Counted from the stretch's first letter, positions 2,290 through 46,440 are shown. The stretch: DNA of 52,740 nucleotides from a virus (IMGVR_UViG_3300050015_001011:1-52740); one strand, 5' to 3'. Notes: generated by a model from the sequence alone, not told the origin. Translations and numbers: made by a program.

Positions 2290-3135
2290 TTATTTCTTTT
2301 CCCAATTAGGAATTAGATCTTCGTAAGTATCTTTCATTCTATTATATTCTTCTTTACCTATCACTATTAAAGTTTCTTCAGGATACTGTTCTTTGAAAAG
2401 CTGAATTTTTTCCTTTGATTTTTCATTCATATAACCTTTATCCTCATACCAAATATTAGTTCCTAAAATATGAAAATCAGGGCAATATGTTAATTTAGAG
2501 CCGTTTTTTCTATTAAGAATAAATCTTTTAGATTCATATTCAAATGGAATACCTTCATAATTAAATACTCTGGCATGATTAGCTTCCCATCTAGAACGAA
2601 AGTTTTGATTATCAAGATCTTTTCTTTTTCCTATTTTACCCCTTCCAGATTTTGGATGGGCACGTTTTCCGAACATATTACCTTTATCTCCTAATTGCGT
2701 TTTAGACATTAATTCTAAAGTTTCTGCGGAAGGATGCGTTCCAACTCTATTATGCCCTCTAATATATTTTTGCTTAGAATTTTTAAGACAGATAAATGGT
2801 TTTTCACAAGTACATTTGCAATATCTAGTTTCATATTCATGGCACTCTGGTTTATACGCAGGGGCTTTTTCTCCTATTCTGCCATACATAGGATTTCCTT
2901 TTCCAGTTACTGTTTTAGAGTGTTTTATTCGCGATTTTTTAGAACGAAATTTTCCTAACATAGGGGCATTTTTTCCTTTATTTTGATGTCCATTAATGAA
3001 TTTTTGTTTAGACCAAGTATAGCATATAAAAGTTATTTTGCATCCACAAACACAGCATCTAGTTTCTGTGATATGAAGCTCTGGTTTATAATTAGGGCCA
3101 TGTTTTTTCGTTCTTATGTATATACCTTTTGGCAT
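2290..3135 (-). CDS. Free-standing homing-type endonuclease, PD-(D/E)XK nuclease with Cys/His-rich N-terminal repeats
   Basis: MPKGIYIRT start, two ETRxCxC...F.C...S..K(F/Y)I.GH modules, C-terminal FRSRWEAN...YCPDF...WYEDKG; paralogous to four other ORFs in the window. Confidence 0.8.
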   Translation of the reverse strand: MPKGIYIRTKKHGPNYKPELHITETRCCVCGCKITFICYTWSKQKFINGHQNKGKNAPMLGKFRSKKSRIKHSKTVTGKGNPMYGRIGEKAPAYKPECHEYETRYCKCTCEKPFICLKNSKQKYIRGHNRVGTHPSAETLELMSKTQLGDKGNMFGKRAHPKSGRGKIGKRKDLDNQNFRSRWEANHARVFNYEGIPFEYESKRFILNRKNGSKLTYCPDFHILGTNIWYEDKGYMNEKSKEKIQLFKEQYPEETLIVIGKEEYNRMKDTYEDLIPNWEKK

Positions 3136-4144: not shown

Positions 4145-4717
4145 ATGAGAAAGGGTAAGATAAGTGAGTTCAGTCCGAAAATAGCTGGAAGCGACGCAAG
4201 TCATGCCGAATATTTGACAGAAGGAATTAAGAAGTCTCGTAAGATGGAAACGTTTGTAAAGATGTATGCTGAGAAGGACGTGAGAAAAATAAAGACGCTT
4301 CCAAGTATGAAAAAAAGAAAGGAGATTATGTTAGCAGCTTTAGATATGGCTAAGAAACCTGAGGAGAAGGTAAAGTATAATAAAGAGATTGCGAATAAGA
4401 TTGTATCACAAGTTTTAAAGAGATTGGAAGTAGGCTCACAGAAGTACGGCGCCGAGTATTTCCTTGCCGACTGTATTGGCGATGAACTTTATCAGGAGCT
4501 ACTTGACCAAGTAGGATGGGCACTTATTAACGCTGTGAGATGGGTAGAGGTATTTCAGAAAAGATTCTTACCGACGGACGCTATCTACTGGAAAAAGTTC
4601 ATGGCTAACCAGAAAATAGATTTTCTTTTAAAGCTGCAGGATGAAGTAAAAGAAGAACTCAGTAAGAGAAAAATTACTGCTAAAGTAGTTGGACTTAAAG
4701 AAAAAGGAGAAAAATAA
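4145..4717 (+). CDS. Hypothetical protein with a possible all-alpha NTP pyrophosphohydrolase-like segment
   Basis: KRLEVGSQKYG...ELYQELLD pattern; GGAGG RBS before ATG 4145; lies between the TGT-like gene and folE. Confidence 0.4.
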   Translation: MRKGKISEFSPKIAGSDASHAEYLTEGIKKSRKMETFVKMYAEKDVRKIKTLPSMKKRKEIMLAALDMAKKPEEKVKYNKEIANKIVSQVLKRLEVGSQKYGAEYFLADCIGDELYQELLDQVGWALINAVRWVEVFQKRFLPTDAIYWKKFMANQKIDFLLKLQDEVKEELSKRKITAKVVGLKEKGEK

Positions 4718-4718
4718 T

Positions 4719-5309
4719 ATGCCTAGTATTGCTGAATCATTTGTAGAAATCTTGAGAAGTTTAAACATTGATCTTGCAGATGCTAATTTTACTGATACAC
4801 CAAATAGGGTCCAGAGAGTGTATGAGCATCTTTGTTTGCGCTGCGTAGTAGGACCAGAGAAGGATTTAGAGAGTATTAAAAAACTTACTGTTACGTTCCC
4901 AAGTACAGCAAAGAATTTGGTAGTTGTTAAAAATATAAAGGCATATAGTGTATGTCCGCATCACTTCTTGCCTGTGGAGTATAGAGTGGACTTTGGCTAC
5001 ATACCTGATGCGTCAGTTGTAGGGTTATCAAAGATCCCAAGACTTATAAAGTACTTGGCTAAGAAACCGGCTTTGCAAGAAGATTTTGTGGAAGAGATTG
5101 TAGATGTATTTGAGCAGATGTTAAAACCTCTTGGTTGTATGTCCATAGTCAGAGGTTTTCACGGGTGTATGAAGTTTCGTGGGATTGAGGAGCCTAACTC
5201 GCCGGTCATCACTTCTGCTATTAAGGGAGTGTTTAAAAATCCACCCGAAGGTAAGAATCCAAGACAAGAAATGTTGGATTTATTAAATGTAGAAGAAAAT
5301 TCAGGTTAA
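4719..5309 (+). CDS. folE: GTP cyclohydrolase I
   Basis: DTPNRV, SVCPHHFLP, GLSKIPR, LQE, HGCMKFRG motifs. Confidence 0.95.
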   Translation: MPSIAESFVEILRSLNIDLADANFTDTPNRVQRVYEHLCLRCVVGPEKDLESIKKLTVTFPSTAKNLVVVKNIKAYSVCPHHFLPVEYRVDFGYIPDASVVGLSKIPRLIKYLAKKPALQEDFVEEIVDVFEQMLKPLGCMSIVRGFHGCMKFRGIEEPNSPVITSAIKGVFKNPPEGKNPRQEMLDLLNVEENSG

Positions 5310-5316
5310 TTACTGT

Positions 5317-5976
5317 ATGAAGAATACATATAATTTTTGTGCTTGTGGCTGTAAACAAAGAGTTACTAAATTTAAGAATAAATATATTAATGGGCACAAC
5401 CAAAGAGGAAAATATCTTTCTTTGAATACTAGAAGCAAAATGAAACGAGCTCAGGCAGATCGAATTCTTCCAGCTGAAACAATAAAGAAATTTTCTACTG
5501 ATAAATTAGGTAAAAATAATCCTAATTGGAAAAAACATCCTTCTGAAGAAACCTTAAAATTAATGTCAGAGGCGCAGAAAGGTGAAAAAAATCACAATTT
5601 TGGAAAACCTGGTCCAGCAAAGGGAGGCAGAGGAAAGGGCGGCAAAAGAGAAGATTTAGGTAATCAATATTTTAGATCTAGTTGGGAACCTAATATTGCG
5701 CGGGTTTTTAATTGGGAAGGAATTCCCTTTGAATATGAACATAAGAGATTTATTTTAGTCAGGTCTGATAAATTAAAGGCGACATATTGCCTTGATTTTC
5801 ATATTACAGGAACTAATATCTGGTATGAAGTAAAAGGTTATATGGATAAATTATCGGCCGAAAAAATTCAACTTTTTAAAGAACAGTATCCCGATGAAAT
5901 TTTAATTGTGATTGGTTTAGAGAAATATAGAGCCTTAAAAGAAACTTATAAATATTTAATTTCTAATTGGGAATAA
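5317..5976 (+). CDS. Free-standing PD-(D/E)XK homing-type endonuclease (paralog)
   Basis: CACGC..KYINGH, NUMOD3-like HPSEETLKLMSEA, FRSSWEPN...YCLDF...WYEVKGYM. Confidence 0.8.
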   Translation: MKNTYNFCACGCKQRVTKFKNKYINGHNQRGKYLSLNTRSKMKRAQADRILPAETIKKFSTDKLGKNNPNWKKHPSEETLKLMSEAQKGEKNHNFGKPGPAKGGRGKGGKREDLGNQYFRSSWEPNIARVFNWEGIPFEYEHKRFILVRSDKLKATYCLDFHITGTNIWYEVKGYMDKLSAEKIQLFKEQYPDEILIVIGLEKYRALKETYKYLISNWE

Positions 5977-8538: not shown

Positions 8539-9047
8539 GTTAGATGAGAAGGTAGTGGATCAGACGCTTGATATGCCGGAGAATAGCCATATTTTACATG
8601 TAGGATTTCAATCGAATGTTTGTTTATGGGCTCTTGTAGACACCGAATCTAAACTTGCAAATAGGACCTTTGCAATTCATGGAACGGGTAATAAGATTAA
8701 TGATTGGGAGCATAAGATTTATATAGGTACGACTCACGATATTCAACTCGGTCTTGTTTGGCATGTATTTGAGATATTAAAATAAAATGGACAAATTAGA
8801 ATTGACTCTAGAACCTAAAAAGAAATCTGAAGTAGAAGAACAGGAAGTGCTCATCTCTTTAGATGTTTATATTCCTTTAAAGAATATAAAAGAAACTTTT
8901 GAGAAAGCTGGTGGGCAGGTAGCAACAGATTTAAATGAAGTGAGTTTATTGTCTATGGTTGATGTCTCAGTAAGATTTACTGTAGAGTCAGCTTTAAAAG
9001 CTATATTTGGTGAAGCAGAAGTTATTTTACAACAGGAGGAAAAATGA
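8516..9047 (+). CDS. Two hypothetical proteins (8516-8785 MKTIWKF...IHGTG...YIGT..WHVFE phage family; 8787-9047)
   Basis: ORF packing; the first has a conserved-looking phage domain. Confidence 0.55.
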
Positions 9048-9715
9048 TTGGTGAAAAGGCAGTAGTGATTTTTAGTGGTGGTATGGATAGTATCACTTTA
9101 TTGAATTATGTTAAATCGCTAGGTTATGGTGTTTATGGCCTTAGTTTTAATTATGGACAAAAACACGTTAAAGAATTGGTCTTCGCTAAACTTTGGGGCC
9201 AGTTAGAGTGTGAAGAGCATAAAATTATTAATTTGGATTTTATGAAAGACATTGCTAATGATTCTGCATTGACTGGAAATAAAGAAATGCCGAAGGAGCA
9301 TTATACACATGAAAATCAGAAGGTTACTGTTGTACCAAATAGGAATATGGTTATGTTGAGTATAGCGGTTGCTTGGGCAGAAAATTTAAAAACAGATAAA
9401 GTATTTTATGGTCCTCATGCAAATGATTTAACTATTTATCCTGATTGTCGCCCAGTATTTGTTGAGGCCGTTTCAAAGGCTTCCGAGCTAGCTACTTTTA
9501 GTGAGGTTAAAATCTTTGCTCCTTTTGTAAATATTACTAAATCTCAGATAGTTGCGTTAGGAACTAAGTTAGGAGTAGATTATTCAAAAACTTGGAGTTG
9601 TTATGAAGGTAGAGATAGGGCCTGTGGAAAATGTGGCACTTGCCAAGAAAGAATTGAAGCGTTTAAAGAGAATGAATTGATTGATCCGTCTCCGTATGAG
9701 GTGGTTAGTTATTGA
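9044..9715 (+). CDS. queC: 7-cyano-7-deazaguanine (preQ0) synthase
   Basis: SGGMDS PP-loop, YGQKH, VPNRNMVMLS, YPDCR, TWSCY...CGKCGTC. Confidence 0.97.
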   Translation: MIGEKAVVIFSGGMDSITLLNYVKSLGYGVYGLSFNYGQKHVKELVFAKLWGQLECEEHKIINLDFMKDIANDSALTGNKEMPKEHYTHENQKVTVVPNRNMVMLSIAVAWAENLKTDKVFYGPHANDLTIYPDCRPVFVEAVSKASELATFSEVKIFAPFVNITKSQIVALGTKLGVDYSKTWSCYEGRDRACGKCGTCQERIEAFKENELIDPSPYEVVSY

Positions 9716-10299: not shown

Positions 10300-11252
10300 T
10301 TGATTTTATCTCACGAGAGTTTTTAGGCAGTACCTTAGGTCTCAAACATATTAAGGAAACGCCAGAAGGGTATTCTGCGTCGTGTCCTTTTAAGCGTTTT
10401 CATAGTAATGGAGAAGACAAGCACCCATCTTTCAATATAAAAAAAGATACAGGTGTGTGGCATTGTTTTACTTGTGATCAATCAGGGAATTTAAATAAAC
10501 TTTTTATTGAAGTTCTAGGAGAGGTTCCAGAGGAGTATAAAGATTTTTATAAGAGAACGGATCCTAATTCTGAAAAATTAAAGGTTCGATTAAATAAGGC
10601 AGCATCTGTTCACGTTAATATAATTTCTTTGCCGAAAGAGTACACCTTAGAATTGTCCGAAGAAGCGCAGATTTATGTAAGAGAGACAAGAGGAGTAACA
10701 AAGTCGGCAATAAATTATTTTCAAATAGGTTATTGTAAAGGAGGTCAATATCTTGATTGTATAGTAATACCTATATTTTTTGAAAAGATACTCAGGAGTT
10801 TTATTGCTCGTAAGATAGGTGAAGAGTTACTGCCTCATCAGAGAAGATATATGCTGGCATCAGGTACTCCTAAAAAAGAACTTCTATTTAATTATGATAG
10901 AATAGATGGAGATAAAGTTTATATAGTGGAAGGGGTGTTTGATGTGCTGAGACTATTTTCATTAGGTACTTTGAATGTCTGCGGGTTACTTGGTTCTACA
11001 ATTAGTGAAATTCAGATACAGAAATTACTCCAAAAGGGGGTGAAAAAGGTTTGTGTAATGCTTGATGGTGATGTTGCAGGGAGAAGCGCATCTAAGGTTG
11101 TTTGTGAGAAGCTATGCGCGTATTTTGAGACATCTAGAATATTATTAGCGCAAGGTAAAGATCCAGGCTCAATCAAAGATATGCAGGAGCTAGATTTTTT
11201 GCTCCGTTTAGAAAAAGAATATATTCTTCCAGTTTCTGCATCTTCGCACTAA
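10296..11252 (+). CDS. dnaG: DNA primase (zinc finger + TOPRIM)
   Basis: CPF..FH...PSF...WHCFTC zinc-binding domain; IVEGVFD and MLDGDVAG TOPRIM motifs. Confidence 0.92.
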   Translation: MIDFISREFLGSTLGLKHIKETPEGYSASCPFKRFHSNGEDKHPSFNIKKDTGVWHCFTCDQSGNLNKLFIEVLGEVPEEYKDFYKRTDPNSEKLKVRLNKAASVHVNIISLPKEYTLELSEEAQIYVRETRGVTKSAINYFQIGYCKGGQYLDCIVIPIFFEKILRSFIARKIGEELLPHQRRYMLASGTPKKELLFNYDRIDGDKVYIVEGVFDVLRLFSLGTLNVCGLLGSTISEIQIQKLLQKGVKKVCVMLDGDVAGRSASKVVCEKLCAYFETSRILLAQGKDPGSIKDMQELDFLLRLEKEYILPVSASSH

Positions 11253-11871
11253 AAAATTCTGTCCAATATTTTCTTTTTGTATTAACTTTGCAGTTACAGC
11301 TAGTGCAGAGAGTTATCAAATTAATTGGAGAGCAGTTCTTTTTATTGTAATCTATGTGGTGAACACACAATTTTTTATTTCTGTTATTATTAGTAGTTTT
11401 AAAGCATTTTTGGCACGTATGATTATCTCTTTCTCTAATAGTTTCTCTGAAAGGCTCTGTCCATTCTGTTGCGTATGGTAAAGAGCCTATTCCTCCTAAC
11501 CAGTTAGGGTTGTTTTCTTTAGAGTGATCGGCTCCTTTTCTACAGTGCCCATTAACATATTTCTTTTTAGAAATAGTAGCACACACAAAAGGTTCGTGCC
11601 CGGGACACGCACAGTATCTAGTTTCCATAATATGATTTTCAGGTTTATATCTTATTTTAAGTAATATTGCTTTGTGTTTTGGAGTGAGCTGTTTTCCAAT
11701 ACGACTATGCCCATTAATAAATTGTTTCTTAGAAACGGTGAAACATTCAAAAGTTTCTTTGCAACCACAAGCGCATATTCTAGTTTCAGGTATATGAAGT
11801 TCTTGCTTATATTTTGCTTTAGCCAGATTGGCCCTTCCTTTTGGTGTTCTTGTATATATTCCGCTAGGCAT
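11173..11871 (-). CDS. Free-standing HNH endonuclease with the same N-terminal Cys/His modules as the PD-(D/E)XK family
   Basis: MPSGIYTRT, two ETRxCAC modules, RDNHTCQKC...VHHIDY...NLITLCTSCN; start 11871 behind an AAGGAG RBS; overlaps the primase 3' end convergently. Confidence 0.85.
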   Translation of the reverse strand: MPSGIYTRTPKGRANLAKAKYKQELHIPETRICACGCKETFECFTVSKKQFINGHSRIGKQLTPKHKAILLKIRYKPENHIMETRYCACPGHEPFVCATISKKKYVNGHCRKGADHSKENNPNWLGGIGSLPYATEWTEPFRETIRERDNHTCQKCFKTTNNNRNKKLCVHHIDYNKKNCSPINLITLCTSCNCKVNTKRKYWTEFFSAKMQKLEEYILFLNGAKNLAPAYL

Positions 11872-12010
11872 GATTTTGTCTCCTTTTGTGTTCATTACTT
11901 CTGTATAATAAAATAATTAGAAAAATCAGGAAAATTATAGTGTATAATAAGCAAAAGGTACTTACTTTGTTTACGGAAGGCTTGGGAGCCAATCCTAAAG
12001 GAGGAAGTAA

Positions 12011-13889: not shown

Positions 13890-15275
13890 ATGGCGAAGAC
13901 AAATAAGAAAGTGAAAGAGGAAAAGATTTATACACATGAAGGGTCTCCTGCTACCCGCACAACTGCTGAAAATCAATTGAGGCGTTCTTTGATGTCCTGT
14001 ATGTTGTGGGAAAATGAATTCTACGAAGATGGCCAAAAAATTTCTGAACGTATCGCTGATCTTGTTGGAAAGGTAGACAGAAATAAGGTTGCTTTAATGG
14101 CGATCGAAGCGCGGGAGAAGATGCATTTACGTCATGCTCCTTTGTGGGTTGTAAGGGCGCTTGCTAAAGTTTCTGATGGTACTTCTCTTGTATCTGATAC
14201 TCTTGCAACGGTTATACAGAGGCCAGACGAGTTAACAGAGTTTCTGGCTTTGTATTGGAAAGACGGTAAAGCACCTCTTTCTGCGCAAGTGAAGAAAGGA
14301 TTGGCAAAAGCATTTACTAAGTTCTCTGAGTATTCTTTGGCTAAGTACAATCGAGCTGAGGCCATTAAACTGAGAGACGTTTTATTTCTTTGCCACGCGA
14401 AACCAAAGGATCGGGATCAAGCTGATTTGTGGAAGAGATTGGTTGACGGAACAATGACAACTCCTGATACCTGGGAAGTGGAACTTTCTGCTGGCAAGAG
14501 CAAGAAAGATGTGTTTGAAAGACTGTTGAAGGAGAAGAAACTTGGTGGTCTTGCTTTCTTACGGAACTTGAGAAATATGGAAGAAGCTGGTGTAGACAAG
14601 AAGTTAGTAAACGCTTCAATAGAAACGGTTGATTTCTCAAGAGTATTACCTTTTAGATTTATTGCTGCTTCCATGGCTGCTCCTAAGTTTGAGGGAGTAA
14701 CAGAGAAGGCTATGTTAGCTTCTATGGAAGGTAAAGATAAGATGAAAGGCAAAACAGTTTTGATTGTAGATGTGTCTGGAAGTATGTATGGTTCTAGTAT
14801 ATCAGGCAGATCTATAATGAATAGAGCTCAGGTAGCAAGTGCCTTAGGAATATTAGTAAGGGAGTTGTCTGAGGATTCATCAATTTATGCTACTGCCGGA
14901 AATGATAGTTCGTGCGTTCATCAGACGGCTGTTGTACCCGCACGAAGAGGATTTGCTCTGTCGGATTATATTTACAGTCAGTGTAATCCTTTAGGTGGTG
15001 GAGGTATCTTTCTTAAACAAGTAATGGACTATGTTTTAAAGTATGAGAAAGAAGCTGACCGAGTTATTGTGATAACGGATGAGCAGGACTGTGGTGGAGG
15101 CGGAGAAGATGCTCCCGCAAAAGCAAATACCTTTGGAAAAGAAAATTATTTGATTAACGTAGCCTCTAATAAGAATGGAATTAGTTATACAGGAAAGTGG
15201 ACACGTGTTGATGGTTGGTCAGATGCGGTAGTAGATTTTATTTTGAAAAACGAGTCCCAAGTTCGTGAGCAGTAA
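13890..15275 (+). CDS. rsr: Ro60/Rsr TROVE-domain RNA-binding protein with C-terminal vWA domain
   Basis: THEG, LRR..MSCMLWE..FYEDG, QRPDE, KYNR...LRDVLFLCH.KP, TWE..LS, LRNLRNM, LPFRF, vWA DVSGSM and ITDEQ; adjacent Y-RNA-like elements. Confidence 0.93.
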   Translation: MAKTNKKVKEEKIYTHEGSPATRTTAENQLRRSLMSCMLWENEFYEDGQKISERIADLVGKVDRNKVALMAIEAREKMHLRHAPLWVVRALAKVSDGTSLVSDTLATVIQRPDELTEFLALYWKDGKAPLSAQVKKGLAKAFTKFSEYSLAKYNRAEAIKLRDVLFLCHAKPKDRDQADLWKRLVDGTMTTPDTWEVELSAGKSKKDVFERLLKEKKLGGLAFLRNLRNMEEAGVDKKLVNASIETVDFSRVLPFRFIAASMAAPKFEGVTEKAMLASMEGKDKMKGKTVLIVDVSGSMYGSSISGRSIMNRAQVASALGILVRELSEDSSIYATAGNDSSCVHQTAVVPARRGFALSDYIYSQCNPLGGGGIFLKQVMDYVLKYEKEADRVIVITDEQDCGGGGEDAPAKANTFGKENYLINVASNKNGISYTGKWTRVDGWSDAVVDFILKNESQVREQ

Positions 15276-15282
15276 AGAATAT

Positions 15283-15354
15283 TACAAGGTATGGTGAAGA
15301 TAAGGGTTACTTCATGAAAAGAAAACAACCCTAATCGCTTGTTCCTACCTTGTA
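15283..15354 (+). ncRNA. Y-RNA-like unit 1 (minimal, stem only)
   Basis: TACAAGGTA/TACCTTGTA terminal stem, GATAAGGGTT/AACCCTAATC upper stem; shares TGGYG...GA...GGKTACTTC and TCGYYTGTTCCYAC motifs with units 2 and 3. Confidence 0.7.
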
Positions 15355-15361
15355 TAATAAG

Positions 15362-15454
15362 TTGTCTGGTGTGGCGATAGAGAACGGTTACTTCTAATTG
15401 AAAATAGAATGCCCTTTAGTGGGCATAACCGTTTTCGTTTGTTCCCACCAGCAA
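15362..15454 (+). ncRNA. Y-RNA-like unit 2 (two apical hairpins)
   Basis: CTGGTG/CACCAG terminal stem, GAGAACGGTTA/TAACCGTTTTC upper stem, apical TTCTA/TAGAA and ATGCCC/GGGCAT hairpins; same conserved motifs. Confidence 0.7.
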
Positions 15455-15459
15455 ATGTA

Positions 15460-15544
15460 GCGAGAGGAGCTGGTTTGATTCCAGGCTAAGTTAGGGTTAA
15501 CGTTAACTTAAATCCTAATCAATAGTGTACGAAGGCACGCTCGC
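15460..15544 (+). ncRNA. Stand-alone circularly permuted tRNA-like module
   Basis: GCGAG/CTCGC closing stem; T-arm-like CTGG-TTTGATT-CCAG; long hairpin GTTAGGG.../...TCCTAAT; D-arm-like TA-GTGT-ACGAAG-GCAC-G. Confidence 0.5.
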
Positions 15545-15558
15545 AAAATGTAATCGCT

Positions 15559-15701
15559 TTTCAGTATGGCGTAGATAATGGGTACTTCTAAAAGGAACTG
15601 GCCGTCGTTGGTTCAATTCCAACTTCAAACCTTCGGGTTTGGATAGCTCAGTTGGCAGAGCACCAGTAAAAAAAGTCCTTTATCGCCTGTTCCTACTGAA
15701 G
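15559..15701 (+). ncRNA. yrlA: YrlA-type Y RNA with tRNA-mimic domain (unit 3)
   Basis: TTCAGTA/TACTGAA terminal stem; ACTGG/CCAGT stem; T arm GTTGG-TTCAATT-CCAAC; acceptor-like stem TTCAAACC-TTCG-GGTTTGGA; D arm TA-GCTC-AGTTGGCA-GAGC; order T-acceptor-D as in YrlA; downstream of Ro60. Confidence 0.88.
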
Positions 15702-15718
15702 ATTTTAAAAGGAGGCAA

Positions 15719-16075
15719 ATGGAAAAAGATTCGTTAGGTAGAGCTATTGAAGAAATTTTTAAAGAGGAACCGTTGCCGTTTAGTAAGTGGATAGAGCAAT
15801 TTATTATTCCTGGTGAGAAGGGAGCTTTTAGGTGGTGGGATGTAAGTTTACAGAACTGTTTATTAAAAAAGGAGGGTCAAATGAGGGTAGAAGCATATAC
15901 AAAGCATCACGTAAAGTACACACTTACAGCTAAAAATAAGGATCACGCAAGAGAAATTGCTAACAGAATTATTACTGAAGGTTTATGGATTACTGCTGAT
16001 GAGGGCACGGATAAGGGAACCGAAGTATTTTTTCCTGTACACCAAATTTTTAAAGTTAAGATAATTGGTGTATAA
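15719..16075 (+). CDS. Hypothetical protein (internal in-frame start at 15881)
   Basis: AAGGAGG RBS before both ATG 15719 and ATG 15881. Confidence 0.55.
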   Translation: MEKDSLGRAIEEIFKEEPLPFSKWIEQFIIPGEKGAFRWWDVSLQNCLLKKEGQMRVEAYTKHHVKYTLTAKNKDHAREIANRIITEGLWITADEGTDKGTEVFFPVHQIFKVKIIGV

Positions 16076-16145
16076 TAAATTAAGAAGAAAATAAAAGACT
16101 AAAGTCCTAATTAGAGGACCTTAGAAAATCAAGGAGGAGAAAAGT

Positions 16146-17090
16146 ATGGCAAAGGAAAAGGAAGAGATGGAAGAGATGGACGAGTTTGATGCAGAAGTAT
16201 CTCGGCTGAAGAAACGTCAGGGAGGTCTTTGGGTTAAGGTTGAGCGGGACGATAATATCTTTCGGATTTTAGGGCCGATGGGTAAAACCGCCGTTCACTT
16301 TATTTCTAATCTTAAGATTATTCCGGAAGGTTCTCCAGTATCGGGTGTTGTTACTTGCGCGCAAACAAAAGATAAGAGATGTGTTGTTTGCGAGGTTGTA
16401 AAGAATCTTCTTAGTTCTTCAAGAGAAGAGGATCAGCAATTAGCCGGAAAGATTAGTGCTGTTCCGCGGTATATGTGGAACGTGCTAGTAAGAGAGGGCG
16501 GATCATCTTCGTATAAGATTCTTGAAATTGGTCCTCAGGCTCTTGAGGCACTAAGTGGTGTTAAGAAGGAGTGGGGTGATTTTCGCGATCCAGATGATGG
16601 ATATGATGTAGTTATTAATCTGGGAGACAAAGCAGGAAGAAATCACTACACAGCAAAAGCACGTGTTGAGAAAAAAGTTGTTGGAGGAAAGCCAACACAA
16701 GAACTTTGTGTTAGTCCTTTAACTGAAGATGAGAAGGCGTTGCCACTTATTGATTTAGTAGACATGAAGACGTTGACTCCGGAAGCAGATCTTATTGCTG
16801 TTTTCGAGAACGCAGGTTATGAGTTAAGTGGAAAAGCATCTGCGCCAAAAAGAACAGGTAAAGCAGAAGATAATTTTGATGAACCTGTTGTTAGTAAGAA
16901 GCCGAAGGCGGAAGAAAAGAAAGAAGAAGCTCCTACACCTAAGTTTGTAAAGAAGGGTGCAGCTCCTGTCGCTGGCGAAGAAAAGAAACCTAAGTGCTGG
17001 GGAACTTTTGAAGATGTGGATGAGTTATGTGGTAAGTGTTCACATTTGAATGCTTGCGCAAAGGCAGCTGGATTCGAATTGGTTCAGTAA
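16146..17090 (+). CDS. Single-stranded DNA-binding protein (gp32-like)
   Basis: FRILG, H..., C...CVVCE, RYMWNV, ILEIG, DF.DPDDGYDVVI pattern; directly upstream of recA. Confidence 0.75.
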   Translation: MAKEKEEMEEMDEFDAEVSRLKKRQGGLWVKVERDDNIFRILGPMGKTAVHFISNLKIIPEGSPVSGVVTCAQTKDKRCVVCEVVKNLLSSSREEDQQLAGKISAVPRYMWNVLVREGGSSSYKILEIGPQALEALSGVKKEWGDFRDPDDGYDVVINLGDKAGRNHYTAKARVEKKVVGGKPTQELCVSPLTEDEKALPLIDLVDMKTLTPEADLIAVFENAGYELSGKASAPKRTGKAEDNFDEPVVSKKPKAEEKKEEAPTPKFVKKGAAPVAGEEKKPKCWGTFEDVDELCGKCSHLNACAKAAGFELVQ

Positions 17091-24051: not shown

Positions 24052-24517
24052 AAAATTAATACCTTTATATTTTTATGAGGTTGGTTATAATTCCGAAGAA
24101 GGTAGTTCCAGTACTTCATTAGTTAGTGATCAAGAAGTATCGCAAGATGATTTTGAGAAGCTTTGTATTGAAGCGTGCAACGCAGCTTTAAAAAATTTAT
24201 TAGGTGCAAATAAAAACCATTTAGGTTATTATGATAAGCTTGATGAAAAGGCTTATATAAGTTTTGAGTATCTTGTTGATGGGATGGTAGAAGAGCTTGC
24301 GAAGAAAGGGTTTAATCGAGTGACGTTTAAGGCAAATTTCTTTCCGTTTGGTTGGGGTAATCTTTTTGATAGGGAAGATTGGAAAGACCATAGAGATGAT
24401 TTGGATTATCGTTTAATAGACGGTTTAGATAAAGAAGTAATTGAAAAGATAACCCAAAAGATGAAAGCGAAATTTATAAAAGAAGAGGACAAAGATAATG
24501 AATATACTAATACTTAA
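24038..24517 (+). CDS. Hypothetical acidic protein
   Basis: ORF with GGAGG RBS overlapping the GT stop. Confidence 0.55.
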   Translation: MGDSKKLIPLYFYEVGYNSEEGSSSTSLVSDQEVSQDDFEKLCIEACNAALKNLLGANKNHLGYYDKLDEKAYISFEYLVDGMVEELAKKGFNRVTFKANFFPFGWGNLFDREDWKDHRDDLDYRLIDGLDKEVIEKITQKMKAKFIKEEDKDNEYTNT

Positions 24518-25226
24518 AGATCTGTTCAATTTTATTACTAAAATATTCCGTCCAGTATTCCCTATTAAAATTTACTTTAGAGTTACAGCTTCTACAAAGA
24601 GTTGTTAAGTTTTTAGGGGTACAGTTCAACTTATTATAATCAATGTGATGAACAATAAAAGTTTTATCTTTTTGTGTTGCAGAACATTTTTGACAAGTAT
24701 AATTATCTCTTATTCTGATAGTTTCTTTAAAAGGAGGAGTCCATTCTATAGAATATGGTAAAAGAGATATTCCTCCTTGCCAATGAGGACTTTTTTCTCC
24801 TACGTATCTTCCTGTCATTGCTTTAGCTAGAGTTGTTTTGGTTTCTTTAGTGTGATGCTTATTTTTAAATCCAGAAACTAATAATCCTAATTTATAGAGA
24901 GCAAGCTTAATCTTAGAACAGGATTTAGCATTCTTTTTAACTCTTTCATCTGTTTCTTGTTTGAGGCTCTTGTTCCAAGGAATATTTCCTTTTTTCCAGG
25001 TACTTTTATTAGGAGGGTGGCTTTTCCCTTTCATGTGGTGTCCCTTAATATATTTTTGGTTGGACCTAACTTCACATTCAAAGGATTCATGATCGGGACA
25101 ACTACATATTCTAGTTTCAAGAATATGAATTTCGGGATTATAATTTGGATGTTGTCCAGAAGCAAATTTTCCTGTGAGAGTTTTAGATATTTTAGCTCTT
25201 ATTTTTAGTGATCTTTTTTTAAACAT
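24507..25226 (-). CDS. Free-standing HNH endonuclease (paralog of 11173-11871)
   Basis: ETRICSCPDHE.F.C...KYIKGH, PWNK, HTKETK, RDNYTCQKC...VHHIDY...NLTTLCRSCN. Confidence 0.85.
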   Translation of the reverse strand: MFKKRSLKIRAKISKTLTGKFASGQHPNYNPEIHILETRICSCPDHESFECEVRSNQKYIKGHHMKGKSHPPNKSTWKKGNIPWNKSLKQETDERVKKNAKSCSKIKLALYKLGLLVSGFKNKHHTKETKTTLAKAMTGRYVGEKSPHWQGGISLLPYSIEWTPPFKETIRIRDNYTCQKCSATQKDKTFIVHHIDYNKLNCTPKNLTTLCRSCNSKVNFNREYWTEYFSNKIEQIFKY

Positions 25227-29095: not shown

Positions 29096-32000
29096 ATGAC
29101 TAAAGAGTTGAAAGTAGTAAAGGAAAGCAGTAAAAGTGCTGGTTCTACAGAGATAGATCTTTTAGTTGAAAGTTTATCGGCCGAGGAAGTTGGACCTTGG
29201 AGTAAAGATAGAGTTGCTGAATCTTTAATGTTAGAAGCAGGTTTAGAAAAAGAGAAGGCAGATGATATAGCGACTGTTGTAGAAGACAGAATATCGCAGT
29301 TGAAGATATCGAGAATTTCTACTTCTTTAGTAAGGGAGCTAGTAAACAATGAACTTTTGGAAAGAGGTGAAAATAAGCGTCTTAAACGATATCAGTGTCT
29401 TGAGATACCTATTTCGGATATTGAATCATTTACCTTTGCTAAGAGTAATGCTAATTCTAATATTAATAACAACAATCCAGAGTCAGTAGCTTTTTTTATG
29501 AGTGAGAATATCACCAAGAAGTATGCTTTACGTAGAGTATTTTCTCAAGATGTTACTCAGGCTCATTTAGATGGCAGGATTTATATACACGATCTTGGAA
29601 TGGTAGAAAGGCTTTATTGCTTTGGTGGAAATATTCCTGAGTATTTAAAGAAGTATGGTTTGCAGGATCTTGATAGTTTGAGCACTAAATCCTTTCCTGC
29701 CAGCACTGCTAATACGCTAGTAGGACATATTAATACATTTCTTTCCATCATACAGGCTTATTTTGCGGGCGCTTTAGGTTTAGGATTTTTAAATATATTT
29801 TTTGCTCCGTATTTAATGAATATGAGTCGCGAACAAGTTTATAATTTAGCGCAGCATTTTGTATTCAGTCTCTCACAGAATTGTTTTAGTAGAGGAGCAC
29901 AGGTTTTATTTATTGATTTAAATTTGCATTTTGGTATTCCGAAGGTGTTAAAAGATGTTCCGGCTATTGGCCCAAAAGGTAAATACATGATAAAGATGCA
30001 TATCAAAGATACTTGTAATAATTCTTGGATCTTTTATAATGATAAACCCGAAATTGATTTAGAGAAAATAGATATCGAGATAAAGAGATTGAATGAGGAG
30101 GCTGAAAGTACTGTGATGGGAGATGTTTGTTACGGTTTTCCTGAATCGGTTAAGGATGATAATATAGAATTTAGGGTTATGACTTATGGTGATTTCGAAC
30201 AGGAAGCTCAAATGTTTCTTGATGTTATTTTGCAGCTGTATAAAGAAGGAGACAAGCAAGGTAATTTCTTTTACTTTCCAAAGATAGATTTGCATATCAC
30301 TAAAGAATGTTTTGAAGATGAGACACAGAAGGCTCTTTTGATGAAGGCCTGTGAAACTGCTTCTGTTAATGGAACTCCTTATTTTATATATGATAGAGAT
30401 TCAACGGTGCTCAGCCAATGCTGTTTAGAGGCTAAGGAGCCTTTACTTCTTAGAAAGGAAGGCAAAGTATTTTTAGGCAAGGCTGAAGATATGTCGACAC
30501 AATCGGAGATAATTGCTGTTGATCCCGTTTCTCATAAATCTGAGTGGGTATTTCCTAAACACGTTATAACGAGAGAAGAGAGTGCTATAGTTGAGATTAC
30601 TGCTCGAGATGGTAAACAAATGCGTGTTACTAAAGACCATCCAATATTAATATTAGAAGATGGAGAAGTAAAGGAGCGGAAGGCCGAGGCATTAAAAGAA
30701 GGTGATTTTGTTTTGCGCAAAGTTAAATGGGAAGATTCTCTCTTTTCTATTAATTATAAAGAACATAAAGGCGTTCTTATAGATGAGGAATATGCTTTTA
30801 TGCTTGGGTTGTTTCAAGCAGAGGGATGTAAATCTAAAGCAGGTGAACTGTGTTTTGCTCTTCATAAAGATGAACTCGATTTAGTGAATAGGGTGTGTGA
30901 CTTTTTTGGCTTGAGTTTTATTCGAAAACAATATGTTGATAAATATCATATTTGGGATATTCGCGTTCGGAGTATTTGTTCGCGGATTCAATTTAAAGAA
31001 ATTTGTGAGAAATATGAAAAGATTCCTCAAGTTATTTGGAATTCTCCGCTTTCAGTTATGAAGGCATACATAGAGGGATTTTATGCTGGTGATGGGTGGA
31101 AATACTCTAATTATACTTTGAAAAAAGGAAAAGGAATAGGTATTAATGATGCTAATCTTAGCGTAGAACTTTCTATTTTGCACGATATGATAGGTATTCC
31201 TACTACGTATAGAGAGCATAGTTACACAAGTAAAAAAGGTAAGCATGTTGGAAGGGAATTTTTTCACCAAGTAATTTTGTATCAAACTTCAGTGTCTAAG
31301 CATTCTATTTTGTATGATAGAATACCTCATCAGCTTATAAAGTTTAAGCGTGGTGCATCTCACTTACTTCGTATTGATAAAAAAGAAAAATTAATTGGTA
31401 TTGATAAATTAAATTCTCTTTGCGACCAAGGGTATGTAGAACGCGCTCAAGTAGATCGATGTATGAATGATCCTATTCGATATATTCCTATTGAAAAAGT
31501 AGAAGTTTTAAGCGGTGAGTTTAAGGTTTATGATATAGAACTTCCTAAGTTTAATTGGTTTGTGCACTCTCAAAGTTTTATTAGTCACAATTGCCGCCTG
31601 AAGGTAGAAATAAATGATGAGGAGCTGATTAAGCATCCAGAGTCAATTAGATTTTGTGCTTTGCAGAACGTAACCATAAATCTTCCTCAAGCAGCTTACC
31701 GTGCAGGCAAAGGTAATTTTACTGATTTTATTGATGAGGTTTATAAGTCAATGGATTTTGCTATGAAGGCGCACGAACAAAAGGCGCGGCTAATGAAGAA
31801 GTGTATGAAACCAGGTGCTCCTTTATATACGGTTGGAAAGGCTTGGTCGGACAAACTTCCTTGGGTTGATTTAGATAAGAGTACGCGGATTATTGGTATT
31901 CTTGGTTTGAATGAGGCAATGCAGTTTCTTTTTGATAAGGGATTGGATGATGAGAAGTCTTACAAGAAGGGTTTAGAAACAATAGTAAGAATGTATCATA

Positions 32001-32638
32001 AATGTGAAAAGTATGAAAAAGAGTTTGAATGCCCTGTTCGACTTGAGGAGACTCCAGCTGAATCGCTCGCATATAGAGCCGCTAAGGTAGATTTACAGCG
32101 ATTTCCCGAGCAGGCTAAGTCCGTTGTAAGGGGTTCAGTAGAAGGCGGAGGCGTTTACTATTCGAATTCGGTGCATTTACCTGTTGATTCACCTGTTGGC
32201 ATAGTAGAGAGAGTTAAGAAGCAAAGTGCCTTTCATCCTTTAGTAAGAAGTGGGAGTATGGTACATGCTTGGGTTAATGATTCTCTACCAGAGCCAGGAA
32301 GTCTATTTAGTTTTCTTCAGAAAGTGTATAATAATACGGCATGTGATCAAATTTGTGTTTCTCCAAATTTTACTTTTTGTAAAGATTGCGATCAGAGATC
32401 TGTAGGATTACTTGATGAGTGCCCGTATTGTAAGAGTAAAAACTTAGAACATGTTTCTCGAGTTACAGGATATTTTTCGAAGGTAGAGAATTATAACGCG
32501 GGAAAGAAGCAGGAAGTAAAAGATAGACTTAAAGGAGATTGTAAAGTAGAAGAAAAACAGTTTTATGAAGTAATTAGAGAAATAGATGAGGTATTAAAAT
32601 CTGATACTGTGTGCAAATTAAAAGTAGAGGAGAAATAG
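29096..32638 (+). CDS. nrdD: Anaerobic (class III) ribonucleotide reductase with ATP cone and intein
   Basis: N-terminal ATP cone, HLDGRIYIHDL..RLYC, SQC|CRL split by an intein, NVTINLP, EETPAES, YYSNS, CKDC..CPYC, SRVTGYF glycyl-radical motif. Confidence 0.95.
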   Translation: MTKELKVVKESSKSAGSTEIDLLVESLSAEEVGPWSKDRVAESLMLEAGLEKEKADDIATVVEDRISQLKISRISTSLVRELVNNELLERGENKRLKRYQCLEIPISDIESFTFAKSNANSNINNNNPESVAFFMSENITKKYALRRVFSQDVTQAHLDGRIYIHDLGMVERLYCFGGNIPEYLKKYGLQDLDSLSTKSFPASTANTLVGHINTFLSIIQAYFAGALGLGFLNIFFAPYLMNMSREQVYNLAQHFVFSLSQNCFSRGAQVLFIDLNLHFGIPKVLKDVPAIGPKGKYMIKMHIKDTCNNSWIFYNDKPEIDLEKIDIEIKRLNEEAESTVMGDVCYGFPESVKDDNIEFRVMTYGDFEQEAQMFLDVILQLYKEGDKQGNFFYFPKIDLHITKECFEDETQKALLMKACETASVNGTPYFIYDRDSTVLSQCCLEAKEPLLLRKEGKVFLGKAEDMSTQSEIIAVDPVSHKSEWVFPKHVITREESAIVEITARDGKQMRVTKDHPILILEDGEVKERKAEALKEGDFVLRKVKWEDSLFSINYKEHKGVLIDEEYAFMLGLFQAEGCKSKAGELCFALHKDELDLVNRVCDFFGLSFIRKQYVDKYHIWDIRVRSICSRIQFKEICEKYEKIPQVIWNSPLSVMKAYIEGFYAGDGWKYSNYTLKKGKGIGINDANLSVELSILHDMIGIPTTYREHSYTSKKGKHVGREFFHQVILYQTSVSKHSILYDRIPHQLIKFKRGASHLLRIDKKEKLIGIDKLNSLCDQGYVERAQVDRCMNDPIRYIPIEKVEVLSGEFKVYDIELPKFNWFVHSQSFISHNCRLKVEINDEELIKHPESIRFCALQNVTINLPQAAYRAGKGNFTDFIDEVYKSMDFAMKAHEQKARLMKKCMKPGAPLYTVGKAWSDKLPWVDLDKSTRIIGILGLNEAMQFLFDKGLDDEKSYKKGLETIVRMYHKCEKYEKEFECPVRLEETPAESLAYRAAKVDLQRFPEQAKSVVRGSVEGGGVYYSNSVHLPVDSPVGIVERVKKQSAFHPLVRSGSMVHAWVNDSLPEPGSLFSFLQKVYNNTACDQICVSPNFTFCKDCDQRSVGLLDECPYCKSKNLEHVSRVTGYFSKVENYNAGKKQEVKDRLKGDCKVEEKQFYEVIREIDEVLKSDTVCKLKVEEK
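30422..31591 (+). mobile_element. Intein (390 aa) with LAGLIDADG homing endonuclease in NrdD
   Basis: Starts CLEAKE, block B VTKDHP, LAGLIDADG motifs MLGLFQAEG and YIEGFYAGDG, VYDIE, ends ISHN followed by Cys+1. Confidence 0.93.
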
Positions 32639-42564: not shown

Positions 42565-43284
42565 ATGTCGTATATAAGAACACCGGAAATTTTAGAAAAA
42601 CAATCTAAAGCACTGATGGGGCATCTTGTCAGTAGAGAAGTACGTGATAAGATAGCAAAAGCTTTAATTGGAACAACCCGTACTGAAGAATCTAAATTAA
42701 AACAATCCAAGACAATGTCTGGCGAGAATCATCCTAATTATAATCCTAAAAATTATATTATGGAGACTAGGTATTGTGCTTGTGGCTGTTTAGCGCCTTT
42801 TGAGTGTTCTATAACTTCTGAAAAAAGTTGTCTCACAGGGCATAGTAGGCTTACTAAAGAGAAGCATGAAAATATGTCTAGAGCTACTTCCGGTAAAAAT
42901 AACGGTCATTATGGGAAGCCAGCTGCAAAAGAAGCAGGTCGCGGAAAAGTAGGAACGCGCTTAGATCTTAATCAGTTCTTTCGTTCTACTTGGGAAGCAA
43001 ATCAAGCTAGAGTTTTTAATTGGGAAGGTATTCCTTGGAAGTTTGAATCTAAAAGATTTTATTTTACTGGCGACAACGTTAAAAGTTCGTATTGTCCGGA
43101 CTTTCATATCCCAGGAACTAATATTTGGTATGAAGTAAAAGGTTATATGGATGATGTTGCGAAGAAAACCATTAAAATATTTCGTAAGCAGTATCCTAAT
43201 GAGATTTTGATAGTAATAGGTAAAGAAGAATACGGTAGAATGAGAGACACATATAAAGACTTGATTCCTAATTGGGAATCTTAA
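42565..43284 (+). CDS. Free-standing PD-(D/E)XK homing-type endonuclease (paralog)
   Basis: YIRT, ETRYCACGC..F.C, FRSTWEAN...YCPDF...WYEVKGYM...DLIPNWE. Confidence 0.8.
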   Translation: MSYIRTPEILEKQSKALMGHLVSREVRDKIAKALIGTTRTEESKLKQSKTMSGENHPNYNPKNYIMETRYCACGCLAPFECSITSEKSCLTGHSRLTKEKHENMSRATSGKNNGHYGKPAAKEAGRGKVGTRLDLNQFFRSTWEANQARVFNWEGIPWKFESKRFYFTGDNVKSSYCPDFHIPGTNIWYEVKGYMDDVAKKTIKIFRKQYPNEILIVIGKEEYGRMRDTYKDLIPNWES

Positions 43285-43983: not shown

Positions 43984-45348
43984 ATGATTAAGTTATCAAC
44001 ACAACCTAAATACAAGATAGGAGACCTCATCACTTTAAAACAAGGTGCTGAGGTAATTATTTCTGGTACGCAGGACGAGGTTCCGAGAAAGTGGGTAGAT
44101 GATGGTAAGCTTTGGGGTGTAGATCATTATGAGGAAGAATCAGGAAGGCTTAATATCAATCGCGTACTTACTCCTTATCCTGGTGCTTTTTGTTCTTGGG
44201 TATCCGAAGATGAAGTACTAGGAATAAGTTTAAGTAGACAAGCTCAAGATGATGAAGATGAGTTTGATGTAGTAGCACGCAAGTTTCTAAAGTGGACAAA
44301 GAGTTTAAATCTTTCAACTCCGAGCGCATTTATTTCTAAGAATAAATTAGAAAGATTATTTAAAGGGCTTGCTAAAACAGGGTTTATAGATAGACCGTTA
44401 CTTGAGGAACTTAGAATGGACGTAATTGTTAATTTAAAAAGTTTTGTAAGTAAAGTTAAAGAATTTTGGAAAAGATATAACGTAATGGATGAAGATGAGA
44501 AGGGGCATCTTTCTAGCATCTGGAGTGAAGGATCGTATGATAATGATGATATTGAGGCCGGAATGGACAACCTAGATGAGTTATTCTCTTTTGAAGATAG
44601 TGGCGGTGGCTTATCTTATTACGAAGCTCTATTGCAACCGGGACTTTCAGATGCAGATTTATTTCAAAGATTTAATACATTCATAAATTTTGCTCATCAG
44701 AGAATAGATTATGGCGCAGATTGGGTAGAAGGAGGTAGAGAAACTTTGGATGAATTAGCTGGCTATAAAAAAGTATTTAAAAAGAAAGCAGCAGACTTTA
44801 CTTGCATTATGCTAGAGATAGATAAGCAAGAAAGTATTTATGCTAAGATAAAGGCTATTGCAAAGAAGATAAAGAAGGAAGATCTGTCAGAAGATGGTAG
44901 AGAAGATGATTTACATGTTACGCTGAAGTATGGACTTGATACCGAAGATCCTGCCCTCATAAGGCCTTTACTTGATAGTGAAGGAAAAATTACTTTAGAA
45001 ATAAAGAAGCTCGATTATTTTGGGGCTAAGGAAACAAAGCAGGATTTTGATGTAGTTATTCTTAGAGTAGATTCTGATCAAATACAAGAACTTCATGAAA
45101 CTATAACTGATACCTTTAAGGATTCGGGCGAAACTCATCCTAAGTACTTGCCCCATATTACTCTTGCTTATGTAAAAAGGGGTTTGGGAAAAGATATCGT
45201 AATAGAATTAAGAAAGGATGCTGAAGATTTAATAGGTAAAAAAATTGTATTTAAAGAAGCTTTATTCAGTACACCAGAAGAAAAAAAGACTGTGATAAAA
45301 TTAAGTAGGCAGATAGTAAAACAAGTTAGATTAAGCAGACAAGGATAA
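43984..45348 (+). CDS. Multidomain protein with C-terminal 2H phosphoesterase (Acb1/LigT-like)
   Basis: Two HxT motifs LHVTLKYG and PHITLAYV; N-terminal SH3-like and acidic modules joined by LSRQAQ and KKKAA linkers. Confidence 0.85.
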   Translation: MIKLSTQPKYKIGDLITLKQGAEVIISGTQDEVPRKWVDDGKLWGVDHYEEESGRLNINRVLTPYPGAFCSWVSEDEVLGISLSRQAQDDEDEFDVVARKFLKWTKSLNLSTPSAFISKNKLERLFKGLAKTGFIDRPLLEELRMDVIVNLKSFVSKVKEFWKRYNVMDEDEKGHLSSIWSEGSYDNDDIEAGMDNLDELFSFEDSGGGLSYYEALLQPGLSDADLFQRFNTFINFAHQRIDYGADWVEGGRETLDELAGYKKVFKKKAADFTCIMLEIDKQESIYAKIKAIAKKIKKEDLSEDGREDDLHVTLKYGLDTEDPALIRPLLDSEGKITLEIKKLDYFGAKETKQDFDVVILRVDSDQIQELHETITDTFKDSGETHPKYLPHITLAYVKRGLGKDIVIELRKDAEDLIGKKIVFKEALFSTPEEKKTVIKLSRQIVKQVRLSRQG

Positions 45349-46059: not shown

Positions 46060-46440
46060 ATGAAACTATCAAGACAAGGCCAACAATCTTTTAATACCAT
46101 TTTTTGTAGCACGGGAGAAGAGAAAGCTCTTGGTTTACAAGGAGTAGTAGACATACCGAATAATACAATTCTTGCGTTCGAGGGAGTTTCCCAAGGCGAT
46201 TTCTTTCATATGAGAAATTGTGCTTTCCCGATTGACTGGTTGTGTGTATCTAATGATGGAACTATTTTAAAAAAAGAAGCGCTGCATCCAGAAGATGATG
46301 TTGCTGGAGTTGCGCCAGGCACGAAGTATGTGATTGAAGCCAAATTGGGAACGTTTAGCGGTAATAAGGGAGATCAAATAGATCTGACTAGTTTAAAGCC
46401 TTCCGGAGGATCTGTGTTTGACTTGTCCAGGAACAAATAA
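46060..46440 (+). CDS. DUF192-like protein with MKLSRQGQ leader
   Basis: EKALGLQ, FHMRNCAFPID, KYVIE motifs of DUF192. Confidence 0.75.
   Translation: MKLSRQGQQSFNTIFCSTGEEKALGLQGVVDIPNNTILAFEGVSQGDFFHMRNCAFPIDWLCVSNDGTILKKEALHPEDDVAGVAPGTKYVIEAKLGTFSGNKGDQIDLTSLKPSGGSVFDLSRNK

Follow-up and report, generated by a model that had tools for sequence, protein, structure and literature searches.

To our knowledge, much work has been done on the Ro60-Y RNA particles of animals and of a few bacteria, and in phages they are represented by one case, that of phiLo in 2025, which was examined in vitro only. In 254 bacteria and 22 phages, the YrlA RNAs were reported to be encoded on the strand of the Ro60 gene and within 4 kb of it (PMC4201824). 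The same report gives the marks of the class as a 5' motif that contacts Rsr (GNCGAAN0-1G) and a YUAY that precedes the V region, and its build as T, closed "AS", and D stem-loops with the tRNA tertiary nucleotides and a covarying 15:48 pair. According to that account, YrlA RNAs are modified by TruB and DusA, the YrlA of Mycobacterium smegmatis can be cleaved by RNase P, and a shorter RNA, YrlB, often accompanies YrlA, the M. smegmatis pair being processed from one precursor (PMC4201824). In a crystal structure, the YrlA domain of Salmonella Typhimurium is L-shaped; its acceptor stem is closed, an anticodon loop is missing, and the authors suggest that some unidentified factor attaches to the D and T stems, which are conserved (bioRxiv 10.1101/312249). 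Two Y-like RNAs encoded by phiLo are ligands of its Ro60 protein, which also binds host PNPase and attenuates it in vitro (PMC12135203). TROVE proteins that have a tRNA-like partner in some jumbo phages have been described as RNA-repair platforms (PMC7824862).

We analyzed a stretch of viral DNA of 52,740 nucleotides (IMGVR_UViG_3300050015_001011; hereafter the window, 52.7 kb) and document in it the structure of a YrlA-like RNA, its conservation, and its linkage to an rsr gene (Table 1). The best explanation of the locus is that it is a phage Rsr/Y-RNA cassette, in which the third and largest of three tandem modules holds a tRNA-like head, and we are confident, though not certain, that this third module is a Y RNA of the YrlA type and the partner of the phage Rsr. 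An Rsr-Y RNA ribonucleoprotein is the parsimonious reading because rsr adjoins the RNA, the Rsr-type stem is conserved, and two more modules lie between the gene and the element. The cassette of rsr and three Y RNAs is complete and unannotated, and it belongs to an uncultured phage from peat metagenomes.

Table 1. Features of the rsr/Y-RNA locus, numbered from the first nucleotide of the window. R1 and R2 are the models described in the text; their E values are rough.
Feature	Coordinates	Strand	Evidence or remarks
rsr, Ro60/Rsr orthologue, 461 aa (TROVE + Ro60-type vWA)	13890-15275	+	Pfam, PHROG, structure match
Y-RNA module 1, minimal stem-loop, no tRNA-like domain (YrlB-like)	15282-15357	+	R1 51.6 bits; R2 53.2 bits, E 1e-12
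Y-RNA module 2, small internal hairpin, no tRNA-like domain	15362-15457	+	R1 47.6 bits; R2 44.2 bits, E 2.6e-10
Spacer between modules 2 and 3, 99 nt	15458-15556	+	T-arm-like hairpin CTGG-TTTGATT-CCAG, 15470-15484
Y-RNA module 3, with outer and inner stems, a conserved internal loop, and the tRNA-like domain	15557-15705	+	R2, R1, covariation in relatives
Permuted tRNA-like domain	15597-15667	+	Direct reading, fold, YrlA T/D-arm alignment (high posterior probability)
Anticodon-stem strand ACTGG	15597-15601	+	Direct reading
Variable loop CCGTC, 5 nt	15602-15606	+	Direct reading
T arm GTTGG/TTCAATT/CCAAC	15607-15623	+	Direct reading
8-bp acceptor-like hairpin TTCAAACC-TTCG-GGTTTGGA	15624-15643	+	Direct reading
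TA linker	15644-15645	+	Direct reading
D arm GCTC/AGTTGGCA/GAGC	15646-15661	+	Direct reading
Single A	15662	+	Direct reading
Closing strand CCAGT	15663-15667	+	Direct reading
AGGAGG ribosome-binding site	15710-15715	+	Direct reading
Next ORF, 118 aa, no family	15719-16075	+	ORF and family searches

The product of rsr matched the Pfam TROVE family (E = 2.5e-17; 63.7 bits, against a cut-off of 23) and PHROG 850, "RNA-binding protein" (E = 5.1e-43); its match to the vWA_Ro60 family scored 21.1 bits, below the cut-off of 27.7. The best match among solved structures was the Ro60 protein of the Thermus phage phiLo (9KOP/9L5Y; E = 1.7e-23, residues 14-451), and in this 438-residue alignment the DVSGS MIDAS-like motif of the window protein aligns with that of phiLo Ro60. 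The ORF thus encodes the Ro60/Rsr arrangement of a TROVE/HEAT-repeat ring followed by a vWA domain with a MIDAS motif. The gene ends 6 nt before module 1 and 282 nt before module 3, on the same strand, and module 3 therefore lies, downstream of rsr, within the distance of about 4 kb on the same strand that is given by Chen et al. (2014). The gap of 443 nt between rsr and the next ORF (15276-15718) holds all three modules. No ORF of 40 aa or more was found on its + strand, and we therefore regard the gap as non-coding. Nor did we find promoter- or terminator-like sites on the + strand of the gap, in a scan that gave no more sites than shuffled sequences did. The AGGAGG of the next ORF begins 5 nt after module 3, which suggests that the region is transcribed as a single RNA that is then processed.

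A preliminary description of this DNA, made before the neighboring gene was considered, had laid out the tRNA-like domain element by element, and our direct reading agrees with it base for base. The outer limits that it gave, 15559-15701, coincide with the two strands of the closing stem of module 3 (TTTCAGTA/TACTGAAG), and the YrlA-like permuted architecture that it proposed, with a tRNA elbow and with neither an anticodon loop nor a CCA end, was recovered in the reading, in the predicted fold, and in the alignment to YrlA. Its assignment of the DNA to a phage is borne out by a virus record that carries primase, gp32-like SSB, RecA, SbcCD, and terminase-like genes. It contained nothing about the adjoining Ro60/Rsr gene, the Rsr-type stem, or the two further Y-RNA modules, and the role that it suggested for the domain, that of a decoy, finds no support in the sequence.

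The domain runs from one anticodon-stem strand through the variable loop and the T arm to the acceptor-like hairpin, and from there through U8-A9, the D arm, and A26 to the other anticodon-stem strand. By standard tRNA numbering, we take its nucleotides to include U8, A14, the pair G15:C48, G18G19, A21, and the pair G53:C61, and those of the T loop to be T54-T55-C56, A57, and A58; the set of elbow nucleotides is complete. The acceptor-like hairpin is closed as c(UUCG)g and has one G-U pair among its 8 bp, and direct reading shows that the domain lacks an anticodon loop, a free 3' end, and the CCA. In the minimum free energy (MFE) fold (z = -2.58), the hairpins of the T, acceptor-like, and D arms all form, as does the helix of ACTGG with CCAGT. 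Outside the domain, the MFE fold of the window RNA pairs CCTTT with AAAGG, whereas the family consensus places CCTTT in the inner stem (GATAATGG/CCTTTATC), of which 7 of the 8 pairs form in the window RNA; the tRNA-like domain is unchanged under either pairing. The conserved segments of module 3 are GGCGUAGA on the 5' side and UCGCCUGUUCC on the 3' side. A 5-bp helix and a 5-nt variable loop take the place of the V hairpin that is present in most relatives, and for this reason the window domain resembles a class I tRNA. Its nearest architectural relative, a module at 4599-4754 of the viral locus L018 (L numbers designate the related loci), has a 4-bp helix and a long V arm.

Searches with tRNA and Rfam models gave a mixed answer to the expectation, set out in the preliminary description, that tRNA finders would call nothing here and that the YrlA model would match: no tRNA was called, and the YrlA match was obtained only below threshold. 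ARAGORN called no tRNAs in the whole 52.7-kb window, Rfam at gathering thresholds gave no match in the window, and the Rfam tRNA model gave none in 14800-16200 at E ≤ 10. At the same E value, the Rfam YrlA model (RF02553) matched 15590-15685 with 33.9 bits (E = 3.2e-5), against a gathering score of 69, so module 3 does not reach the curated threshold. Because this model also fires at E ≤ 10 in 13 of 14 control genomes, the sub-threshold match carries little weight on its own, and because 33.9 bits is less than 69, we place the element in the broad YrlA class and not in the curated Rfam family. None of 18 related viral loci reached the RF02553 threshold, and Rfam at gathering thresholds found only tRNAs in them. 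The features of a canonical tRNA gene are missing, the acceptor arm being closed by UUCG and the anticodon stem-loop being absent. A comparison of the intergenic DNA with GenBank phages gave no similarity match. We attribute the weak Rfam matches to DUF2815 RNA (16.2 bits, E = 9.4), Plastid-ycf2, and SNORD52 to chance.

The conservation of the element was analyzed in relatives identified by their Rsr proteins. The protein search found homologues in 95 GenBank phage records, and 18 viral contigs with 42-55% identity were retrieved; a pattern scan followed by reading showed that permuted T-arm/hairpin/D-arm elements with the same flanking motifs adjoin rsr in most of these 18. Twelve RNAs were aligned (alignment A1), namely that of the window and eleven from ten contigs; L002, which does not differ from L001 over this region, was left out. 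From A1, RNAalifold predicted 32 pairs that make up five helices, namely the outer and inner stems and the stems of the T, acceptor-like, and D arms, and compensatory changes were found in 27 of the pairs. In A1, 92.7% of the cells were paired, compared with 39-48% when the partners were slid by 1-3 columns, and none of 500 shuffles reached the observed value on any of five measures.

A model built from A1 (R1), which includes the window sequence, gave exactly three strong matches in the window, at the coordinates of modules 1, 2, and 3. As a guard against circularity, we made a second alignment (A2) of 22 matches from 14 loci, none of them from the window. In A2, 94.0% of the cells were paired and 30 of the 32 pairs showed compensatory changes, and covariation was seen in each of the T, acceptor-like, and D helices. 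A model built from A2 (R2), whose members were chosen with R1 and hence with a model that had seen the window sequence, recovered the three modules when it was run over both strands of the 52.7-kb window, the sole other match scoring 11.1 bits (E = 0.2). Module 3 scored 114.8 bits with R1 and 99.8 bits with R2 (E = 3.2e-25, over the full model length), where the E values of both models are rough because calibration was shortened. By its R2 score and its MFE fold, the element exceeds chance expectation. The Levitt pair 15:48, which is G15:C48 in the window, is G:C in 19 of the 22 A2 relatives and A:U in 2, with 1 gap. U8 is present in 21 of the 22 and A14 in all of them, and T54, T55, C56, and A58 are nearly invariant. 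Because the permuted form with its closed acceptor arm is kept with covariation across 22 relatives, we conclude that it is under selection.

A repeat search of the 443-nt gap found two motif families (D1 and D2), each present three times. One lies on the 5' side and reads GGYG(A/T)AGA...GG(G/T)TACTTC, and the other lies on the 3' side and reads TCGCYTGTTCCYAC. Module 1 carries the common motifs as GGTGAAGA..GGTTACTTC on the 5' side and TCGCTTGTTCC on the 3' side. Every 5'/3' pair encloses a stem, and the tRNA-like domain is found inside the third pair only; the stem is therefore the constant feature, since modules 1 and 2 keep it without the domain. The motif GNCGAAN0-1G does not occur exactly in any of the three modules, each of which is one substitution away (GGTGAAG in module 1, GGCGATAG in module 2, and GGCGTAG in module 3), and the clade consensus at this position is GGYGUAG, which is nearly invariant in the 22 relatives. 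At the YUAY with which the V region opens, modules 1 and 2 read UUAC and module 3 reads GUAC, which matches at three of the four positions. The UACUUC segment is invariant or nearly so in all 22 relatives.

The spacer between modules 2 and 3 was considered as a fourth module and rejected, because its match to R1 was confined to the T arm, was local, and scored 6.4 bits, and its fold z was -1.11. It has no Rfam match, neither clade model calls a module in it, and it folds no better than shuffled sequences. A GAAG-capped hairpin in this spacer resembles one in the first module of L018 (4392-4509).

The association of these RNAs with rsr extends well beyond the window. At least one full-length R1 match on the same strand lies beside rsr in all 18 related viral loci. 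With the window Rsr we also retrieved 71 bacterial loci, mostly from Acidobacteriota, Caulobacterales, and Hyphomicrobiales, and R2 at E ≤ 1e-6 gave 198 matches in 69 of them. Every one of the 198 is on the rsr strand and upstream of rsr, and the two loci that gave no match have less than 120 nt of upstream sequence. As the RNA is found beside rsr in 69 of 71 bacterial loci, the family is not phage-specific.

R1 also gave matches in four of five GenBank phages tested: eight modules upstream of rsr in Caulobacter phage CcrColossus, three in Xanthomonas phage Olaya, one downstream of rsr in Microcystis phage Mvi-JY20, and two weak matches in crAss-like phage cr112_1. In Ralstonia phage RsoM2USA, rsr is present and R1 gave no match at E ≤ 0.01 within 1.5 kb. 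None of the modules in the named phages with matches is annotated as an RNA. The clade model thus finds the same unannotated RNA family in cultured phages and in bacterial arrays of up to eight modules, although some of the relatives found here may already figure among the species and the 22 phages of Chen et al. (2014). Placement downstream of rsr is the minority arrangement, seen in the window, L018, L008 (which has upstream modules too), Mvi-JY20, and cr112_1.

Several of these arrays hold features of their own. The eight tandem modules of CcrColossus (L020, NC_019406) occupy 258-1461, and an annotated "tRNA-Gln" (673-740 of the locus) lies inside the module at 665-839; it looks like a mis-call assembled from the Rsr-motif strand, the V hairpin, the T arm, and part of the acceptor-like arm. 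An ARAGORN "tRNA-Leu" in L016 (67-132) overlaps the Y-RNA module at 58-208, and a 145-nt Rfam "tRNA" match in L009 (2573-2717) takes in the D arm of one module together with the T arm of the module that follows. In Y-RNA arrays, tRNA finders make false calls. Arrays in metagenome-assembled genomes of Acidobacteriota lie within 1.6 kb upstream of rsr (eight modules in L045, 401-1941; seven in L040, 302-1923; six in L080, 463-1923). D-arm types differ between the modules of one array (TAGCTCAG..., CGTCTAGTGG..., GGCGGAGTGG...; A2 rows L022, L020, L016, and L023), as if the modules were mimicking different tRNA species. In L008 (900-5600), rsr and the Y RNAs lie mid-way in an array of 15 tRNAs. 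L013 (4325-4400) and L017 (1897-1972) have, beside rsr, tRNAs with the anticodon CTA, which reads UAG (ARAGORN "Pyl"), and these may reflect stop-codon suppression or recoding in the two phages.

In most respects the window RNAs resemble the YrlA RNAs of bacteria and mycobacteriophages, as those are described in PMC4201824. Both adjoin rsr on the same strand and have an Rsr-type stem formed by their ends; in both, the V region is followed by the T arm, then by a closed acceptor-like stem-loop, and then by the D arm; and both have the tRNA tertiary nucleotides, a covarying 15:48 pair, and accompanying YrlB-like RNAs (PMC4201824). They differ in that the 5' motif in the window is GGCGUAGA and not GNCGAAN0-1G, with only 33.9 bits to RF02553, in that the window RNAs lie downstream and not upstream of rsr, and in that the V hairpin is replaced in the window copy. 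The clade of the window strongly conserves UACUUC and a 3' UCGCYUGUUCC, whereas in the Salmonella and M. smegmatis RNAs, according to PMC4201824, the 5' strand alone can be recognized.

The phiLo locus (Yrl1 and Yrl2; 9KOP and 9L5Y) shares with the window a phage-encoded Ro60 and more than one adjoining Y-like RNA, and it provides the experimental precedent for a complex of phage Rsr, Y RNA, and host PNPase (PMC12135203). The phiLo Yrls lie upstream of the gene and are not called tRNA-like in the portions of PMC12135203 that describe them, the RNAs of the two phages being compared by description only. Like the window locus, the Yrn1/Rsr/PNPase system of Deinococcus radiodurans (RYPER) is modular, with an Rsr-binding stem and an effector domain, and it has several Y RNAs per locus (PMC4201824). 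The effector domain of Yrn1 has some tRNA-like features, but Chen et al. assign this RNA, with its partial tRNA resemblance, to a separate lineage, and its Ro-binding helix is similar, on both strands, to metazoan Y RNAs (PMC4201824).

The tRNA-like domain might instead be a free-standing decoy that acts independently of Rsr and soaks up elbow-recognizing proteins or tRNA-targeting defense nucleases, which we consider highly unlikely. A complete set of elbow nucleotides would serve such a decoy, the UUCG-capped 8-bp arm would make the mimic stable and unprocessable, and YrlA is reported to be a substrate of TruB and DusA (PMC4201824). The loci of the relatives, moreover, often sit among phage tRNA genes (the 15-tRNA array of L008, and nearby tRNAs in L003, L017, L018, and L023), which links the rsr/Y-RNA locus to tRNA biology. 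However, the domain is never alone: in the window and in every relative it lies within an Rsr-type stem beside rsr, and the two sibling modules keep the stem and lack the head. This disfavors a decoy that works without Rsr and makes it less parsimonious than an Rsr-Y RNA ribonucleoprotein. In addition, anticodon nucleases cut the anticodon loop, and they would find no target loop in this domain. A sponge role for the whole Rsr-bound particle was counted as a variant of the best explanation and not of the free-standing decoy.

The linkage of the RNAs to rsr also bears on the proposal that the tRNA-like fold and the hairpins near it act only in cis, as signals at which host RNase P, Z, or E would cut a long early transcript in the interval from rsr to the SSB/RecA genes, with no function in trans. 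Such processing punctuation would fit a gap with no predicted promoter or terminator and a ribosome-binding site 5 nt after the RNA, and RNase P can cleave M. smegmatis YrlA (PMC4201824). Yet, with the acceptor-like arm closed by a tetraloop, neither RNase P nor RNase Z would find a 5' leader or a 3' trailer, and rsr and the RNA strictly accompany each other, in 69 of the 71 bacterial loci and in all 18 viral ones, whatever the neighboring genes are, which argues for a partnership with Rsr and not with the flanking mRNAs. We regard this proposal as extremely unlikely. A last proposal is that the element is a tRNA gene, decayed or permuted, from which processing would still produce a tRNA half or a tRNA able to decode. 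The near-consensus tRNA sequence of the D and T arms and the calls made by tRNA finders on modules of relatives (tRNA-Gln in CcrColossus, tRNA-Leu in L016) speak for it, but we dismiss it as virtually impossible because the anticodon loop, the free 3' end, and the CCA are missing, and ARAGORN and the Rfam tRNA model are silent here and the permuted, closed-acceptor order is kept with covariation across 22 relatives.

For the Rsr-Y RNA ribonucleoprotein we propose the following mechanism. The rsr gene, the three modules, and probably the downstream genes would be co-transcribed, and the RNAs would then be cut out. By what is known of the family, the phage Rsr ring would bind the stem and internal loop common to all three modules, and the bound segments would be GGYGWAGA ... 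UACUUC on the 5' side and UCGCYUGUUCC on the 3' side. The stem of module 3 runs on into the tRNA-shaped domain with its closed acceptor arm, and this domain would act as an effector handle that brings a host tRNA-recognizing or RNA-decay factor to the Rsr ring, by which the infecting phage may redirect or dampen the turnover of RNA in its host, or the quality control of that RNA. In a scan of 49 ORFs, from a record that is only about 40% complete, we found no genes for PNPase, RtcB, or an RNA-repair ligase, and any effector would thus have to be a host protein. By analogy with the RYPER complexes of Deinococcus and Salmonella and the RYPER-like complex of the Thermus phage phiLo, this protein could be PNPase, and it could equally be another tRNA-binding factor; we hold each of these identifications tentatively, as somewhat less than an even chance, and we think it unlikely that there is no effector.

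A more speculative extension of the same ribonucleoprotein, which we judge quite unlikely, is that in the arrays at the rsr loci of phages and bacteria the tRNA-like heads differ in the type of their D and variable arms, that each head mimics a different tRNA identity, and that the Rsr-bound mimics of a phage form a particle that counters host defense. Such a particle would do one of two things: on the Rsr ring it would trap enzymes that process tRNA or host nucleases directed against it, or, as was proposed for phiLo, it would sequester the PNPase needed for type III crRNA maturation. The heads that may point to different identities are those with Glu-like or class-II-like D arms (CcrColossus and the Xanthomonas phage), as against the Ala/Lys/Phe-like head of the window. 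If this were so, the idea of a decoy would be right in spirit, but it would be carried out by a ribonucleoprotein.

The cassette is an RNA-protein pair of a known kind, and it leaves knowledge of the YrlA/Y-RNA class itself unchanged. Its practical value lies in better annotation and in tractable model phages in which to ask what the tRNA-like handle recruits.

The genes of the window make up the replication, recombination, and nucleotide module of a large phage, and they include those for a sigma-like protein and glycosyltransferases; the virus record is judged to be about 40% complete. The DNA was traced only to peat metagenomes, in eight runs, all of which contain DNA contigs and none RNA; comparison with four of them gave four short contigs that match the window exactly and show no variants, joints, or ends. 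The closest bacterial relatives of its Rsr (46-63% identity over the best segment) come mostly from metagenome-assembled genomes of Acidobacteriota, Caulobacterales, and Hyphomicrobiales, which together with the peat source gives a weak hint about the host.

Elsewhere in the window, 28 kb from the rsr locus, a 454-aa protein (43984-45348) matches 2H phosphoesterase/LigT/Acb1 (anti-CBASS) families over residues ~266-420, and its N-terminal 260 aa gave no match. Five ORFs encode NUMOD3 and phage Endonuclease I paralogues (2290-3135 on the - strand, 5317-5976, 42565-43284, 45351-46058, and 46418-47314) and are probably scattered free-standing homing endonucleases; two further ORFs encode HNH proteins (11173-11895 and 24507-25226). 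The anaerobic ribonucleotide reductase NrdD (29096-32638) is split by an intein that carries a LAGLIDADG domain. FolE, a GTP cyclohydrolase I, and QueC, which stand at the start of the 7-deazaguanine pathway, are encoded at 4689-5309 and 9044-9715, and genes of this pathway in phages usually mean modified DNA bases.
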